From: a virus | Lineage: Duplodnaviria > Caudoviricetes | Virus record (IMG/VR): IMGVR_UViG_3300028887_000067 | Span: 224,001 to 288,000 of that record | DNA: 64,000 bases | Direction: 5' to 3' (one strand) | In this document: in pieces, positions 17,371-29,081 of the stretch | Layout of the letters: every line of letters begins with the position of its first letter | Numbering within the stretch: the first letter of the stretch is position 1 | Program-made: the position numbers and the translations under genes | Notes under the pieces: generated by a model | Told to the model about the DNA's origin: nothing | What the model saw: the letters and a program-made list of their open reading frames with translations, nothing else | Databases searched by the model: none

Positions 17371-17398
17371 GTTCAACCGTAATTGCTATATTTGCACC

Positions 17399-23336: not shown

Positions 23337-24212
23337 ATGCAAAAATTCCTGATATCTTCCGACATAGGCGGTGCAAGCCTTACCAAGGGCGCCCTAGAGT
23401 ATATTCTCGACCATAATGGCGAAGCCGGCACTGACAACAAGTATTCGGAATCCAACGGATGCGTGTATAGGGAGTATACCCTTGGGTATACCGGCGCTCG
23501 GGAAACATGGCCCAGCCCGCTGTATACGGAATGGTATCAGCTCTACAAGGAGCAGACCCCGACCGAATCAGTCCGTCCGTTCAACGAAATTCCACTCGAC
23601 GCATCGGTCCAACTGCCCACAAGCAACTGCCTGAGAAACTTGTTGCCGCAGGGAATGACGCAATCCGTGTATGACGCGTACGTCCCGAGCGAATATTTCA
23701 GTGAGCTTGACCGGCTCAACGGTGGATGCCGTCTCCGCATCGTCACCGTGCCGGAAGGCGCCGACGTGTATATTGTCTCCGATGACGACATGGGATGCGA
23801 GCGGGTCGAGGAATTTCACCGTTCTTGGTCTGTACAGCCTGACGACGAAATCGCTTTTGTTGAAACGGTAAAGAGACTTTCGTCAGTTTTTGAACATGAC
23901 CCGATCAAACCGAATCAAGTAGTGGACACCGATGAAATCCAGTTCGTTCACCGTGGCTGTAAAGGCGACGGCGTCCTCTTCGTGCATAATGGACGCGAGG
24001 GCATCGCCGTGTCCAAGAAAACGGGCAAGGTTGCTTTGCTCGTGCTCGCCGAATATTTCTGTGAGACGGACATACACCCGAAAAGTTGGTTCGAAATTGT
24101 CGGCGCGGAAAAGGATCACATCACGTCACAGTACGGAATGCTGTTCAAAATGAAAGAGATGAAATCATATATGGACTTGTGGACGCTACTCCAGCAACGG
24201 CTGAACAAATAG
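23337..24212 (+). CDS. Hypothetical protein
   Basis: 291-aa ORF abutting the upstream gene. Confidence 0.65.
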   Translation: MQKFLISSDIGGASLTKGALEYILDHNGEAGTDNKYSESNGCVYREYTLGYTGARETWPSPLYTEWYQLYKEQTPTESVRPFNEIPLDASVQLPTSNCLRNLLPQGMTQSVYDAYVPSEYFSELDRLNGGCRLRIVTVPEGADVYIVSDDDMGCERVEEFHRSWSVQPDDEIAFVETVKRLSSVFEHDPIKPNQVVDTDEIQFVHRGCKGDGVLFVHNGREGIAVSKKTGKVALLVLAEYFCETDIHPKSWFEIVGAEKDHITSQYGMLFKMKEMKSYMDLWTLLQQRLNK

Positions 24213-24218
24213 GAGGTT

Positions 24219-24623
24219 ATGGTGCCAGCAAATATGGAAAAATCGCTACCTGTTGTACAATCGTCGACAGCTGAGCGGGAAGCTAACATCATCAACTATT
24301 GTATAAAGTTGCAGAAAAAGATCAAGTATTGCGACACCGCTATGGCTGTATTGCATGCCTTGATTGTAGTCGACGCGGTGTCGTTATTTTTCTCAATGCT
24401 AATATACGCAAGCGCGGATGCCGCTTTGGCCGGCGTTATTTTTGTGGTATCTCTCAGCCTCGCGCCATTGTTGATACTGGGCATCATTTTCTGTCCTACT
24501 CCGAATCCATACGGAACCCAGCTCATGGTAGCGGCAAACAAGTTGCCGAACAACACGGATGCAATGATGCACTTGAAACGCCGACTCATCGACGAAGCCG
24601 AAGACGCCATAAAATGGCATTAA
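24219..24623 (+). CDS. Two-TM membrane protein
   Basis: GGAGG RBS; two hydrophobic helices. Confidence 0.65.
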   Translation: MVPANMEKSLPVVQSSTAEREANIINYCIKLQKKIKYCDTAMAVLHALIVVDAVSLFFSMLIYASADAALAGVIFVVSLSLAPLLILGIIFCPTPNPYGTQLMVAANKLPNNTDAMMHLKRRLIDEAEDAIKWH

Positions 24624-25270
24624 TCGTCCCAGAACTTCTCGATCGTTCCGACCAGTGCGTATTTACGCAACGCGCTTATGCAGGAATGGTATGACGAGTA
24701 GTGGTTCTGCACATTGAGAGCAATGTCCTTCAATGTCGCTCCCGGATTCGCCTGCACGTATTCCTTGGCGCGTGCGATGAAACGCGAGAACGAAGTTGAC
24801 CTGGAGCCGGCCTGTGTGCCGGCTTCAAGCTTTTTGTCCATGTGCCTGAGTTCGGGAAGCCAGAAATCGAGGTCGCCCGGCAATGGTTCGGCTTTCAGGG
24901 CGATTCTTGCGAACCTCTGGGGCGTGTCGTCGAGTATTCCCTGGTATTCGCCAACCATTATATAGCCAATCCCCAGTGCGCGGAGCACCTGTCTGGCATC
25001 GTTGTTCAGCGTACAAGGACAGGCGACATACACACGTGTGGCTGTATCGAGCCACCTGGTCGCTTGCGCAATGACCTTGATGTTCAGCTGTTTCTTGAGC
25101 TCGATAGCGATCACCTCGCCGTCGTTGAAGTATACCAGGTCGCACGAACCCGATCCGCCGATGCCTACTTCCTCGGCCATCTCCATGCCCTTGAAAAGGT
25201 TGGCGTCCTTTATGGCGCGTCCTACCTCTACCTCGCTAATGTCGAACTTGAATTGCTTGCGTCGTCTCAT
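24620..25270 (-). CDS. PD-(D/E)xK nuclease-fold protein (MmcB/DUF2161-like)
   Basis: EEV..CDLV..IAIELK..IAQA..VYVACP..LGIG. Confidence 0.7.
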   Translation of the reverse strand: MRRRKQFKFDISEVEVGRAIKDANLFKGMEMAEEVGIGGSGSCDLVYFNDGEVIAIELKKQLNIKVIAQATRWLDTATRVYVACPCTLNNDARQVLRALGIGYIMVGEYQGILDDTPQRFARIALKAEPLPGDLDFWLPELRHMDKKLEAGTQAGSRSTSFSRFIARAKEYVQANPGATLKDIALNVQNHYSSYHSCISALRKYALVGTIEKFWDD

Positions 25271-25461
25271 GCCGAAAATATAGCTAAATGTCCATAAAAA
25301 GCGAAATCCATCGCGTTTGCGATGGATTGCCCCTTGTGCTTCTCTTTCCTCGTGTACTTCGATTTTAGCTGTACCACCCTTGTTCGAAGGGTGGCGCCGT
25401 TGCTGGTTCCGGCAACCCTCGCCATGCGCTGTCGCGCCGTTTCGGTAGCTTTCGTCTTCAT
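25267..25461 (-). CDS. ArfA-like small basic protein (putative ribosome rescue factor)
   Basis: 64 aa, GAGGA RBS; LRTRVVQLKSKYTRKEKHKG resembles the ArfA FRxRV..Y.RK.KH core; internal terminator-like hairpin. Confidence 0.55.
   Translation of the reverse strand: MKTKATETARQRMARVAGTSNGATLRTRVVQLKSKYTRKEKHKGQSIANAMDFAFYGHLAIFSA
25296..25328 (-). terminator. Terminator-like hairpin inside the ArfA-like ORF
   Basis: AATCCATCGC-aaac-GCGATGGATT then TCGCTTTTT, upstream of the stop codon. Confidence 0.65.
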
Positions 25462-25527
25462 ATTGCTTTCCTCGCGTTGATACAAGTTTAGCAATTTGCT
25501 ATATTTCGGTCAACCAAAGAGGATCCG

Positions 25528-26010
25528 ATGGACACGAAAGACACACTCAAGCTCAGCAACCTGTATAACGCTAAAAACCTGACTACCTTGGTCGGCGACC
25601 AACTCAAGGCGCTGAAGACGTACGACCCGCGCAAGTTCGCCCAGGTAATCGAGAACCAGCTGTGCCTGAACAGCGGAAACATGCCGAAGGCGTTCAAGGA
25701 CGTGCTCAAGTTCAACGTACCCATACTGCAGTCCGAGCTGAAGCCTTACGTGTATGAAGATAAGTTCGGCCGTGGCACCGTGCCGACTGACACTTATTTC
25801 GTCAAGAGCTGTGGAAAGGTCAGCGCGATTATCAAGATCATCGGCGGGGAGACCGGCATCGGGACGGTCAGCCCGTCGAAAATACCCGATGACGTGTACG
25901 TGTATACGGTCGGGGAAATCAGCGAGAAGGTGGTCGCCACCATCAAGCTGTTCACCGACGAGATCGAACGTCTCCGCGCCGAGGAACGGGTGAAGAAGGA
26001 ACAGGATTGA
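25528..26010 (+). CDS. Hypothetical protein
   Basis: TGCTATATTT promoter, GAGG RBS. Confidence 0.7.
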   Translation: MDTKDTLKLSNLYNAKNLTTLVGDQLKALKTYDPRKFAQVIENQLCLNSGNMPKAFKDVLKFNVPILQSELKPYVYEDKFGRGTVPTDTYFVKSCGKVSAIIKIIGGETGIGTVSPSKIPDDVYVYTVGEISEKVVATIKLFTDEIERLRAEERVKKEQD

Positions 26011-26495
26011 TGAGAACCATCGGCTTGTGCGCACTTGCGGCCGTGCTCGTTGCCATTTCGGTGAAGAACGCATTCCGCGACTTCGTCCGCAAGTGCAACG
26101 GCATGATTCGTCTGGTGGCGTGCGCCGGCGGGTCCTATATGTTGTTAAGGTGCGTCGTGTTTCACGCCGACCCCTATCACTCGGCGATCGTATATGTCGC
26201 GTTGAGCGAGACGGAATGTAAATCTGTGATACAGGATATGTGTGACAAGTACCCGAAGGTATTCGAATATGATGACATACTCGGCATTAAACGGTCCCGG
26301 CTCAAGACAAGCGGGTTTTTTATCTCGCCGAATGCGAAATTGAAGCAGACGATTCCTGATTGGGACGACTTCAGACATTTCCTAAAAAGCCTCAACAATG
26401 TCCCACCCTTCTGGCGCAATCCCGTGCCTGTAGACGACATTATCAGTGATTTCAAGTCACGATGGAAACAAACTATTATAAAATATGGAACATAA
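26007..26495 (+). CDS. Hypothetical protein with hydrophobic N-terminus
   Basis: Coupled to the upstream gene. Confidence 0.55.
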   Translation: MMRTIGLCALAAVLVAISVKNAFRDFVRKCNGMIRLVACAGGSYMLLRCVVFHADPYHSAIVYVALSETECKSVIQDMCDKYPKVFEYDDILGIKRSRLKTSGFFISPNAKLKQTIPDWDDFRHFLKSLNNVPPFWRNPVPVDDIISDFKSRWKQTIIKYGT

Positions 26496-26504
26496 GGAGA
26501 TCAT

Positions 26505-27896
26505 ATGACAAAGCGCATATCAGAATCCGTAATCGCCAAGGCGAGACGTACGATTGGGCACCGCTCGGGCCGCGCCACTTCGGTGAGCCCGCGCCTTCCT
26601 AAGCAGTACAAGAAGAAGAACCCGAGCAAGTGGATAATCCACCACTTGACCCAGACGGACCTGTACAAGTATTCAATGGGCCAGCTATACTTCCACAAGC
26701 ACCGCAACGTGCAGGCCCGCTGGGAGTTCAAGCTGCGTTCCAAGGGGGTCCGTCTCGACCACCTTTACGAGGCGATCAACCTCGAGCTCGACCACCTCTG
26801 CACGCTTCGCTACACCATGACTGAACTGAACGGGCTCCGCGTAGTCGGCCCGTGGCTCGCTGAGGACTTCGTCCGTTACCTGAAACTCGTCCAGCTCAAC
26901 CGCGAGTACATCCATTGCGAATACGACCCCGATGACGAGTGTGGTCTCAAGATATGGGCCGAGGGACCGCAGATGGACGTGTTCTGGTTTGAGATTTACT
27001 GCCTCCAGATTGTCCAGCACCTCTATTTTGATGACCTTGAGATCGACTGGGACGCTTCCAAGGCAGCTCTCGACGAAGCTATCCAAAAGTGGAAGGCCGC
27101 CGCCGAACGCGGTATCAAGTTCACCATCTCTGACTTCGGTATCCGTCGCAGCGTCGACGACAATTGGAACGAGTATATGGTGTCCACCATGTTGAAGGAA
27201 CTCCCCGGCGTATTTGTCGGCACCTCCAACGTTTACCTCGCAATCAAGCTGGGATGCAAGGCCATCGGAACTTTCGCCCACGAACTCTACCAGGTTTACC
27301 AGGGCCTCGACTACATCAACCTCCGCATGTTCCAGGTTGCCGTGTTCGAGGACTGGATGCACGAGTTCGGCGGTGACCTCGGTATCGCTCTCTCCGACAT
27401 CGTCGGCTTCAAGGCATTCCTCGCCGACTTCGGTGGCGACGACCCGCGTGGCAAGCTCTACGCTAAGGTGTTCGACGGATGCCGTCACGATTCCGGCGAC
27501 CCGTACACGTGGGGAGAGATGCTAATTGCGCATTACCGGAAGTTGAAGATTCTGCCCGAGACTAAGATCGGCTGCTGGAGCGACTCCCTCAACGTCGACA
27601 AGTCCATCGCCATCGCGGAACACTTCAATCTCCGCATCAAGATCGCTTTCGGAATCGGCCAGTTCCTCTGCGCGAGCCTCTTGAAATTCAAGAACAATAC
27701 GGACAACCGCAAGCCGCTTTCCATGGTGATGAAGGTCGTCATGATCAAGGCGCACGACAAGGCCCCGTGGGTATGGGTCGTCAAGCTGTCCGACTCGGTC
27801 GGAAAGACGATGTGCCCCGACCAGGAGCGCATCGACCTGATCAAGCGTACGTTCAACTACAGTTCGATTGACGACGACCCCCCGAGCTGCCAATAA
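26505..27896 (+). CDS. pncB: Nicotinate phosphoribosyltransferase
   Basis: TDLYKYSM, DFGIRRS, GTSNV, GTFAHE (phospho-His), RHDSGDP, WSDSLN, AFGIG, VKLSD; lacks the NAMPT DSYK/HDFGxRG pattern; basic N-terminal extension. Confidence 0.92.
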   Translation: MTKRISESVIAKARRTIGHRSGRATSVSPRLPKQYKKKNPSKWIIHHLTQTDLYKYSMGQLYFHKHRNVQARWEFKLRSKGVRLDHLYEAINLELDHLCTLRYTMTELNGLRVVGPWLAEDFVRYLKLVQLNREYIHCEYDPDDECGLKIWAEGPQMDVFWFEIYCLQIVQHLYFDDLEIDWDASKAALDEAIQKWKAAAERGIKFTISDFGIRRSVDDNWNEYMVSTMLKELPGVFVGTSNVYLAIKLGCKAIGTFAHELYQVYQGLDYINLRMFQVAVFEDWMHEFGGDLGIALSDIVGFKAFLADFGGDDPRGKLYAKVFDGCRHDSGDPYTWGEMLIAHYRKLKILPETKIGCWSDSLNVDKSIAIAEHFNLRIKIAFGIGQFLCASLLKFKNNTDNRKPLSMVMKVVMIKAHDKAPWVWVVKLSDSVGKTMCPDQERIDLIKRTFNYSSIDDDPPSCQ

Positions 27897-27953
27897 CTTG
27901 TTAACCAAAGAATCCAGTTGCCACGCGACTGGATTCTTTGCTATATTTTTCGC

Positions 27954-29081
27954 ATGGCATCCATTACATTTATTTATGGCGGCGCGTTTGACCCGATTAC
28001 CATCGGTCACGAGAGCATCATCTACAACTTGACGCTTTACATCGACTCCATCATCGGAAAAGACAAATTTGATAGTGTCCACCGGATTATCGCCGTGACG
28101 GCGAACGACGAGAAGAGCTATCACTTATCGCTGAAGCATCGCATGGAGATGGTTCAAATCGCCATCCCGGAGGCGCTGGGGTGGAAAGTTGTCGAGCAGG
28201 AAACCCGCATGGCGGATTTCGTACGGAACCTGCGCAAAGAACAGCAGACCCCCGAAGATAGCATACCCGGTCCCTTGTTCGTCATTGCCCTCGGTTACGA
28301 TGAATGGGAAGACTTGAAACATAACAAGTGGGTCGACTCCGATTTCCTCTTGCACAATTGCTCGTTCATCGTCGTGGATCGCCCTGATGTGCATAGCAAG
28401 TATACCCGTCAAGACGAGACCGGTTACTCGGTCACGCATGTTAAATGGGGCGTGCCCTGCGTATCCTCGACACAGGTCAGAAACGATATGCGGAATACTC
28501 CGCTGTATGCCGGCAAGGACGTATCCATTCCCGTTTCGATGTACCTCCGCGGCCACCACCTGCTCGGCCAGACTACGGCGGTCGAGTACGAGGAGATAGA
28601 GAACGAAGGAATCAATTCCTATAACCCGAAAGACTTCCCGAAGCCGTCGGTCACGGCCACCACCCTTATTATGTTTAAGGATCGTGTGCTTCTTGTTCGG
28701 AGGAAGAATTTTCCCGACCACGACATGTGGTGCTTTCCGGGAGGCTTCGCCAACCCGCACGAGAATATCGAGACGGTCGGGGCTCGCGAGGTGTTCGAAG
28801 AGACCCAGATTTCCATACCAGAGGACAAAATCATCCAGCTCGGCGTGTTCACTCCCGACGACCCGCGCATCTGGAAGTTCGAAAAGTTCTGGTCGTACGA
28901 CGTTGCCCTTTGGGCGGACGTGTCGTTCCATCAAAACACTAACTTACTTGAGCCGAGGGCGGCCGACGACGCCAAGGACGCCTGCTGGTTCCCTATAAAG
29001 GAAGTCAGGGGCATGCAGTTGGCGTTCCACCACAACAAGATTCTCGAGAAGTTCTTATCCACACATCCCGGTTACGTTTAA
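27954..29081 (+). CDS. Bifunctional NadD-like adenylyltransferase and NUDIX (ADP-ribose pyrophosphatase-type)
   Basis: YGGAFDPITIGH, VSSTQVR; PSVT, PGGF..E....GAREVFEET, AADDA, LAFHH. Confidence 0.88.
   Translation: MASITFIYGGAFDPITIGHESIIYNLTLYIDSIIGKDKFDSVHRIIAVTANDEKSYHLSLKHRMEMVQIAIPEALGWKVVEQETRMADFVRNLRKEQQTPEDSIPGPLFVIALGYDEWEDLKHNKWVDSDFLLHNCSFIVVDRPDVHSKYTRQDETGYSVTHVKWGVPCVSSTQVRNDMRNTPLYAGKDVSIPVSMYLRGHHLLGQTTAVEYEEIENEGINSYNPKDFPKPSVTATTLIMFKDRVLLVRRKNFPDHDMWCFPGGFANPHENIETVGAREVFEETQISIPEDKIIQLGVFTPDDPRIWKFEKFWSYDVALWADVSFHQNTNLLEPRAADDAKDACWFPIKEVRGMQLAFHHNKILEKFLSTHPGYV

Follow-up and report, generated by a model that had tools for sequence, protein, structure and literature searches.

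ArfA (YhdL; PF03889; PDB 5U4I, 5MDV, 5H5U, 5MGP, 7OJ0) is a ribosome-rescue factor of beta- and gammaproteobacteria. To our knowledge, only a few bacterial lineages possess alternative rescue factors of the ArfA/BrfA/ArfT class. The products of arfA and brfA are made from non-stop mRNAs and are restrained by trans-translation (PMC8012679). The stem within E. coli arfA is a site of RNase III cleavage as well as of termination (PMC8012679). Relatives of ArfA are annotated in Pseudoalteromonas phage J2-1 (ATN93434) and Citromicrobium phage RXM (g10, PMC8953757), and thus the idea of a viral ArfA is already present at the level of annotation; the literature searched contained no functional work on these or other phage ArfA proteins. 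Here we describe a small minus-strand gene at positions 25267-25461 of a 64,000-nucleotide stretch (hereafter the window) that covers positions 224,001 to 288,000 of the IMG/VR virus record IMGVR_UViG_3300028887_000067. The record (308,245 bp, completeness estimated at 81%) represents a jumbo phage. Judging by sequence comparison and by analogy with arfA and brfA, we consider it fairly probable that this gene encodes a distant phage-borne relative of ArfA and that its synthesis is gated by trans-translation.

The gene resembles arfA in several respects. Both encode small basic peptides sharing the pattern R-x-R-V...K...Y-x-R-K-x-K-H (residues 26-42 of the window protein and 26-45 of ArfA). Both have a stem-loop within the open reading frame (ORF) before the stop codon, the expected active product has about 55 residues, and the tail past the stem shows no conservation. 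An in-ORF hairpin is likewise obtained on folding E. coli arfA (z = -5.1), and in RefSeq an arfA-derived small RNA is annotated from arfA codon 56 onward. However, the stem in the window is a short 10-bp stem of the terminator type followed by a T-tract, whereas the E. coli stem is long and of the RNase III type; besides, the gene resides in a jumbo phage and has its cellular relatives in Fibrobacter. The likeness to BrfA (YqkK) of Bacillus subtilis is one of regulatory design alone, that is, a rho-independent terminator before the stop codon of a gene held down by trans-translation (PMC8012679), whereas brfA itself is a chromosomal gene of a Firmicute. Finally, the annotated ArfA proteins of phages J2-1 and RXM are near enough to proteobacterial ArfA for automatic naming, unlike the window protein, and the J2-1 gene has an ordinary stop codon overlapping the start of the next gene and no internal terminator. 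What appears to be new here is a divergent ArfA-like branch that occurs in jumbo phages and Fibrobacter and retains the candidate non-stop switch.

The ORF consists of 64 codons and TGA and encodes a basic protein of 64 residues ending with ...LRTRVVQLKSKYTRKEKHKGQSIANAMDFAFYGHLAIFSA. It is the only copy of the family in the 308-kb genome. The homologues begin at the same MKTKA... start. The putative promoter of the gene, found by a consensus scan, has 9 of 12 consensus matches and lies in a 66-bp divergent intergenic region, which it has in common with a predicted plus-strand promoter TGCTATATT at 25497. The hairpin inside the ORF, AATCCATCGC/AAAC/GCGATGGATT, has a perfect 10-bp stem and a 4-nt loop; the stem ends 12 codons, and the T-tract about 9 codons, from the stop codon. 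The folding energy of the isolated stem is -14.5 kcal/mol. In its 66-nt context the energy is -21.3 kcal/mol (z = -4.8), and none of 200 shuffled sequences folds equally well. A preliminary description of this locus had listed the 64-residue basic protein, the perfect hairpin and T-tract before the stop codon, and the hydrophobic composition of the tail. All of these are indeed there: the ORF translation coincides with the quoted sequence, the hairpin with its T-tract lies inside the frame, and the tail is hydrophobic. The consensus terminator scan includes this hairpin, but taken alone it is weak, as it yields 17 terminator-like sites in 10 kb compared to 9.5 expected; the hairpin stands above chance because it is conserved and covarying in the homologues. 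The Rfam scan of positions 24900-25700 produced no match.

At the DNA level, about 60 distinct homologues were compared, and at the protein level, 229 representatives. Eighteen close homologues, found in contigs of up to 460 kb, are conserved through ...KHKGQSIAxAMDFAF and then diverge fully, with lengths from 54 to 95 residues. Comparison of bases in the window and five close DNA homologues reveals three zones. Within the 44-codon core, 20-26% of bases differ, and synonymous codon changes are more frequent than non-synonymous ones (e.g. 18 vs. 8). Only 1-3 bases differ in the 11 codons of the hairpin and T-tract, and these belong to the loop or to the closing pair. In the tail (9 codons), 14-21 of 27 bases are different. 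The tails of the homologues contain 10-90 codons (13-88 in the phage-type and Fibrobacter DNA loci) and have no mutual similarity. Core residues R28, Y36, R38, K39, K41 and H42 are invariant. The synonymous excess in the core, the near-invariance of the hairpin bases and the divergence of the tail bases thus point to a core that is a protein under purifying selection, a hairpin conserved as nucleic acid, and a tail evolving without selection.

The hydrophobicity of the tail has a simple explanation: it arises because the T-tract and the promoter motif GCTATATTT, that is, T-rich DNA, are read in frame. It is not a conserved protein feature, since both the sequence and the length of the tail are random among the homologues, and a conserved degron at this position was rejected on the same grounds. 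Two metagenomic homologues (P0015 and P0018) have a frameshift in the hairpin region, which they translate as KHKVHRESDGFRF... and KEKSPNTRDASGRHCI. Either these are sequencing errors, or they are another sign that the stem-encoded residues are unimportant.

The DNA loci were collected using protein patterns blind to the hairpin and comprise 12 phage-type loci and 56 loci from Fibrobacter/Fibrobacterales. The ORF reads through the hairpin and the T-rich run in each phage-type locus belonging to the clade and, with a single exception, in the Fibrobacter loci. A stop codon before the hairpin is absent from all 12 phage-type sequences and from 44 of the 45 distinct Fibrobacter-type sequences. In the DNA alignment of 60 distinct sequences, 99.3% of the cells for the ten stem pairs are paired. 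One of these pairs is C-G in 45 sequences, A-U in 11 and U-G in 4, and other pairs alternate between G-U, A-U and G-C. The covariation score is not attained in any of 500 shuffles, and pairing drops to 36-55% when the partner columns are slid. Many stem pairs are G·U, possible in the sense-strand RNA only. On the other strand they would be C·A mismatches, and therefore the structure under selection is that of the coding-strand RNA. The T-rich run directly follows the stem in all copies and has the form TTTCGCTTTT or TTTCCCTTTT in phage and Fibrobacter copies. In IMG/VR, the hairpin sequence occurs in this gene only.

For most of the 229 representatives, the hairpins were judged from covariation of amino acids. 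The residues encoded by the opposite arms covary as base pairing dictates (I/M, L/G, L/R, F/E, F/G, F/R, V/A, P/G). A set of 72 representatives, clustered at 50% identity, gives 72 compatible amino-acid pairs out of 72, whereas shuffles average 37 and never exceed 53; these counts are inflated by relatedness, and still at least five pair types are present. Among all possible residue pairs, 18% are compatible with stem pairing. Thus the proposed terminator hairpin inside the ORF, predicted to yield a non-stop mRNA, is backed by conservation and covariation at the RNA level in both phage and Fibrobacter copies. At the sequence level, the gene carries the feature of the ArfA/BrfA regulatory class, a stem-loop inside the ORF 5' of the stop codon, and this stem-loop is conserved and covarying.

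Several other roles of the hairpin were considered and rejected. It does not reflect a constraint on the encoded protein, as changes from M to R and from I to L preserve pairing rather than chemistry. It is not a cruciform at the DNA level, as its G·U pairs are confined to RNA of the sense strand. Neither is it an attenuator of the next gene, as in Fibrobacter both neighbours of this stand-alone gene have the opposite orientation.

Some relatives lack the hairpin. In near relatives (L026-L029), an ordinary stop codon occurs 3-8 residues past KHK. The residues encoded by the hairpin are thus dispensable for the protein, which fits an active product ending near this point. The short phage proteins of the DUF7230 and PHROG families, whose function is not known, have the C-terminal motif KYTRKEKHK in common with the window protein. 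However, ORF185 of Campylobacter phage CP81, the loci L010 and L011, and the gene of Acinetobacter phage 133 use an ordinary stop codon shortly after KHK and contain no in-frame hairpin; the same combination of an ordinary stop and no hairpin was observed in the ArfA gene of phage J2-1. The short form is found in cultured T4-like Acinetobacter phages and in Campylobacter phages. In CP81, this short ArfA-like/DUF7230 ORF with a normal stop (L002:1456-1590) is located between the clamp-loader and rnh genes. The corresponding short ORF of Acinetobacter phage 133 (L036:592-711) also has a normal stop, overlaps the end of the annotated coding sequence Acj133p022, itself appears to be unannotated and has a clean terminator on its 3' side.

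The motif AGCTATATT (25285-25277) resides between the T-tract and the start of the next gene, whose ATG (25268-25270) overlaps the TGA of the small gene (25267-25269). The pattern [TA]GCTATA[TA]T occurs at 29 sites in the genome, mostly intergenic, and the exact 9-mer TGCTATATT has 19 genomic occurrences against about 2 expected, as we estimate from genome size alone. The sites often form divergent back-to-back pairs, are often located directly 3' of a hairpin, and in several cases precede an ATG by 6-8 nt. So short a distance (e.g. at 17384, 22750, 25285 and 27939) implies leaderless mRNAs. The motif is conserved 3' of the hairpin in loci L005, L006, L007, L014, L018, L021, L022 and L025. Since it lies between the T-tract and the ATG and is conserved in the homologues, the next gene probably has a promoter of its own, likely a leaderless one. 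The small gene would then be monocistronic, with its sole stop codon situated beyond its own terminator. Such a separate promoter supports the non-stop reading of the gene.

The profile search of 1.84 billion protein representatives identified 229 proteins at E <= 1e-3. Of 145 scanned relatives, 97 match DUF7230 at E <= 0.01, and one matches Pfam ArfA. The connection to ArfA goes through an intermediate group (A10) of short DUF7230 proteins, 40-60 residues long, with the pattern ...KRNPIAKxLRxPxFRxRVVxDKKKYTRKEKHK. The alignments compared by hhalign shared no sequences. The window clade (A9) matches the intermediate group with probability 98.3% and E 2e-14, and the latter matches ArfA with probability 94.5% and E 7e-8 over ArfA residues 11-50. 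Used as a hidden Markov model against PDB, the intermediate group retrieves six distinct sequences, all of them ArfA (E from 8e-6 to 1.5e-4), and nothing else. A bridging protein (L011) is above the DUF7230 cut-off (30.3 bits) and simultaneously matches Pfam ArfA at E 0.003. The homologue P0009 carries PF23876, the DUF7230 family, in precomputed data. PHROGs 18092, 2701 and 6310 are related as well (PHROG matches have E 1.6e-6 and 2.5e-5), and their profiles end where the hairpin starts. The family-invariant residues Y36, R38, K39, K41 and H42 align to Y39, R41, K42, K44 and H45 of ArfA. As both links of this chain are strong, though the direct link is weak, we conclude that the protein likely belongs to an ArfA-like superfamily, outside the curated ArfA family, the relationship being transitive.

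Other searches were less informative. Profile searches of PDB with two alignments built around the window protein (A1 and A3, the latter restricted to the core) yielded no ArfA, but only chance matches to TehB at E about 1, and no BrfA chains were returned with these two or with the intermediate group. Comparison with Pfam, NCBIfam and, by direct BLASTP, ArfA gave nothing significant; BLASTP shows KxxYxRKxKH alone. The feature- and structure-based search of ESM Atlas was uninformative, as it returned only unnamed clusters and a 10% share of DUF7230.

The same gene with an in-frame hairpin and a random tail was observed in chromosomes. All 56 chromosomal loci (L037-L092) are from Fibrobacter/Fibrobacterales, and a sample of 201 genomes of the phylum contained the family in 55 cases, mostly with one copy per genome. 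The consensus of these copies is MAKNK...RIDGSQNGATLRTRVVRDKTKYNRNLKHKKSLADAGDFPF, with the hairpin AAATCCCTCGC CGAT GCGGGGGATTT CCCTTTT (e.g. L044:2420-2740). They share the core motifs NGATLRTRVV and KYxRxxKHK with the phage copies. Transfer-messenger RNA (tmRNA) was found in all five Fibrobacter genomes with the cellular homologue (5/5), and no ArfA at the Pfam level was found there. A 2024 survey reports arfA in none of 1,956 genomes of the Fibrobacteres-Chlorobi-Bacteroidetes (FCB) group (PMC11633108, Table 1). In this group, reportedly devoid of arfA, the Fibrobacter gene is a candidate for a rescue factor of the cell. The only cellular copy lacking the in-frame hairpin comes from Fibrobacterales bacterium Fibro_02 (L075:2501-2737). 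Its stop codon occurs 8 codons past KH and is followed by a different, separate terminator, making it a natural "deregulated" variant.

A phage-type copy with the same hairpin was also found in a 24.8-kb contig binned with a ruminal Fibrobacter metagenome-assembled genome (L093, G001:C23:1-8000). This contig has other genes in common with the phage (tblastx identity up to 71%, genome positions 240417-241136) and possibly derives from a jumbo phage related to this one, a weak hint that Fibrobacter is the host. In the tree constructed from 44 alignment columns, the Fibrobacter copies form one clade (support 99/97) and the phage copies are outside it; so few columns give little resolution as to a recent host-to-phage transfer and its direction.

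The proposed mechanism is as follows. Transcription from the promoter at 25513-25485 would end at the in-frame hairpin and U-tract (25328-25295), or the hairpin would be processed to the same effect, so that most messages would end at about codon 53-56 and contain no stop codon. As long as the host tmRNA-SmpB system is not fully engaged, the nascent peptide would receive a tag and be degraded. When this system is saturated, by infection or by nucleases yielding many truncated mRNAs, the peptide of about 55 residues would escape. Its basic segment (RTRVV...KYTRKEKHK) could insert into the mRNA channel left empty in stalled ribosomes, and its middle part could recruit a class I release factor and free the nascent chain, as ArfA does with RF2. 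We infer that termination occurs in vivo, that the product is tagged, binds ribosomes and recruits a release factor, and that the phage gains from it; every step after transcription belongs to this inferred part. An ArfA-like peptide produced from a non-stop mRNA, as initially proposed, agrees with the transitive homology, the covarying hairpin, the random tails and the separate promoter of the next gene; its direct membership in Pfam ArfA did not withstand the analysis. The purpose ascribed to the gene in the preliminary description, sensing of stalls caused by RNase or tRNase defences, would be pure speculation. Stalls induced by tRNases keep the mRNA in the channel and would not be substrates of the ArfA type unless the mRNA is also cut.

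If the family is active, the virus would be investing in ribosome quality control, which bears on how phages deal with host mRNA decay and RNA-cutting defences. Arguments for and against a broader interpretation seem to us evenly balanced: the family could form an extensive branch of the ArfA superfamily that has so far escaped recognition, and it would provide Fibrobacterota and many phages with their first rescue factor that depends on a release factor. Jumbo phages would have their own tmRNA-gated copy that senses exhaustion of trans-translation in the course of infection or under nuclease defence and frees stalled ribosomes for phage protein synthesis, a virus-encoded ribosome-rescue system with an intact feedback switch. 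If the family is active, the ArfA class extends to Fibrobacterota and many phages, including, in the short form, the T4-like Acinetobacter and the Campylobacter phages. In that case the non-stop-mRNA switch has also been independently retained on very divergent sequences.

A number of observations weigh against an ArfA relative gated by trans-translation. The protein does not match Pfam ArfA (gathering score 25.5 bits) at E <= 1, nor does the six-frame translation of the genome at E <= 10. Direct hhalign comparison of the core profile (A3) with enterobacterial ArfA (A2) gives a probability of 34% and P 4e-4, with sensitivity reduced by the enterobacterial-only reference alignment. The alignment itself is sensible, as it matches window residues 14-43 to ArfA residues 14-46 with a 3-residue gap at GKG. 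Thus the profile comparison with ArfA suggested in the preliminary description succeeds through the intermediate group and remains weak when made directly; accordingly, the tentative homology proposed there stands as a transitive link. The match of the window protein to DUF7230 (PF23876) is 16.8 bits with E 0.0075, below the 27-bit cut-off, and covers only positions 23-35. The KGKGS motif, correctly reported as missing, is replaced by a gap opposite ArfA G35-K36-G37 (window ...LKS-KYTRKEKH), and the segment N-terminal of the shared stretch differs as well (GTxNGATL compared to EALLHDPLF in ArfA). The shared stretch is short and rich in lysine and arginine, and hence the statistics of the profiles may overstate the relationship. 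Interruption of the U-tract (UUUCGCUUUUU) by CGC or CCC makes the efficiency of the terminator uncertain. The host is not established, there being only a weak hint at Fibrobacter. Finally, neither the release-factor domain PF00472 nor tmRNA was found in the phage genome, its record being about 81% complete, and thus the phage would have to rely on host factors.

Other explanations have to be weighed as well. One of them concerns the action of the peptide, which might bind the mRNA channel as ArfA does and yet work against the host, competing with its ArfA-like factor or tmRNA-SmpB or sequestering a release factor, and thereby redirect translation. The part in common with ArfA is indeed mainly the channel-binding basic segment, given the N-terminal difference just mentioned. 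The likely host group already has a chromosomal copy, so that a phage copy needs a reason, and the phage copies are placed outside the Fibrobacter clade. However, the core motifs and the presumed tmRNA-gated design are the same in phage and Fibrobacter copies, and gating is hard to reconcile with an inhibitor needed early and in quantity; we saw nothing that would be peculiar to an inhibitor. We regard such a role as unlikely. There is likewise a slim possibility that the in-frame hairpin is a cleavage site of an RNase, e.g. RNase III, or a stabilizing 3' structure, and that the message is truncated by processing and not by termination. The T-rich run directly after the stem in all copies speaks for a terminator, as does the occurrence of a hairpin with a T-run before TGCTATATT promoters of other genes, in what look like ordinary terminator-promoter modules. 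Processing would explain the interruption of the U-tract and the long, perfectly paired stem, and has a precedent in E. coli arfA, whose stem is cleaved by RNase III in addition to termination (PMC8012679). In any case, it would alter only one step of the proposed mechanism.

It is quite improbable that the gene encodes an unrelated small basic nucleic-acid-binding protein whose ORF has lost its stop codon by genome compaction and hence extends across a terminator-promoter module, with a purely compositional resemblance to ArfA. The stop-less layout is retained over about 60 distinct DNA sequences, both in jumbo phages and in stand-alone Fibrobacter genes, and two independent methods tie the intermediate group to ArfA and to nothing else in PDB. 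The weakness of direct matches to ArfA, the abundance of lysine and arginine in the shared segment and the unnamed clusters in ESM Atlas would all fit a compositional resemblance, but the shared N-x-I-A...L-x-x-P-x-F-R-x-R-V part is not of low complexity. That there is no real gene at all, and that the ORF, short and lacking annotation, spans a regulatory region by chance, can be practically dismissed: it is contradicted by the 229 protein representatives and by the synonymous excess in the core, and a good candidate Shine-Dalgarno box and a predicted promoter are present. A distant relative of ArfA controlled by a non-stop switch thus remains our preferred reading. The features of the locus are listed in Table 1.

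Table 1. Coordinates of the small gene, its signals and the adjacent gene in the window.
Feature	Position	Strand	Comment
Full ORF	25267..25461	-	64 codons + TGA; stop beyond the predicted terminator, overlaps ATG of the next gene
Shine-Dalgarno box GAGGAAAG	25466..25473	-	4 nt 5' of ATG; read from sequence
Predicted sigma-70-like promoter of the small gene	25485..25513	-	TTGACC, 17 nt, TAAACT; TG preceding the second hexamer
Conserved core, codons 1-44 (MKTKATETARQRMARVAGTSNGATLRTRVVQLKSKYTRKEKHKG)	25330..25461	-	residues 14-43 align to ArfA 14-46
Predicted in-frame terminator hairpin, codons 45-53 (QSIANAMDF)	25305..25328	-	10-bp stem, AAAC loop
T-rich tract TCGCTTTTTA	25295..25304	-	directly 3' of the stem; expected mRNA 3' end in codons 53-56
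Unconserved tail YGHLAIFSA + stop	25267..25294	-	would be translated only from read-through transcripts
Candidate promoter motif AGCTATATT (extended -10 type) of the next gene	25277..25285	-	6 nt 5' of its ATG
Neighbouring 216-aa gene	24620..25270	-	phrog_12193, E 3.7e-13; function not assigned

The product of the neighbouring gene has only weak matches to VRR-NUC and NucS-like nucleases. Its start appears to be leaderless, and the gene is probably a separate transcription unit that is not a part of the device described here. Megablast of positions 24000-28000 against GenBank phages found no match. In the window, the sites of the promoter motif [TA]GCTATA[TA]T(T) are located at 133, 5170, 5990, 17384, 19615, 22750/22773, 25285, 25497, 27939, 31706, 45749/45775 and 50392/50408, and 14 more reside elsewhere in the genome. 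The tRNA and tmRNA search detected neither in the window and no tmRNA in the entire genome. The only two tRNA genes, both tRNA-Ala (anticodons TGC and AGC), are situated outside the window, right where the virus record begins (C1:25-98 and 196-268).

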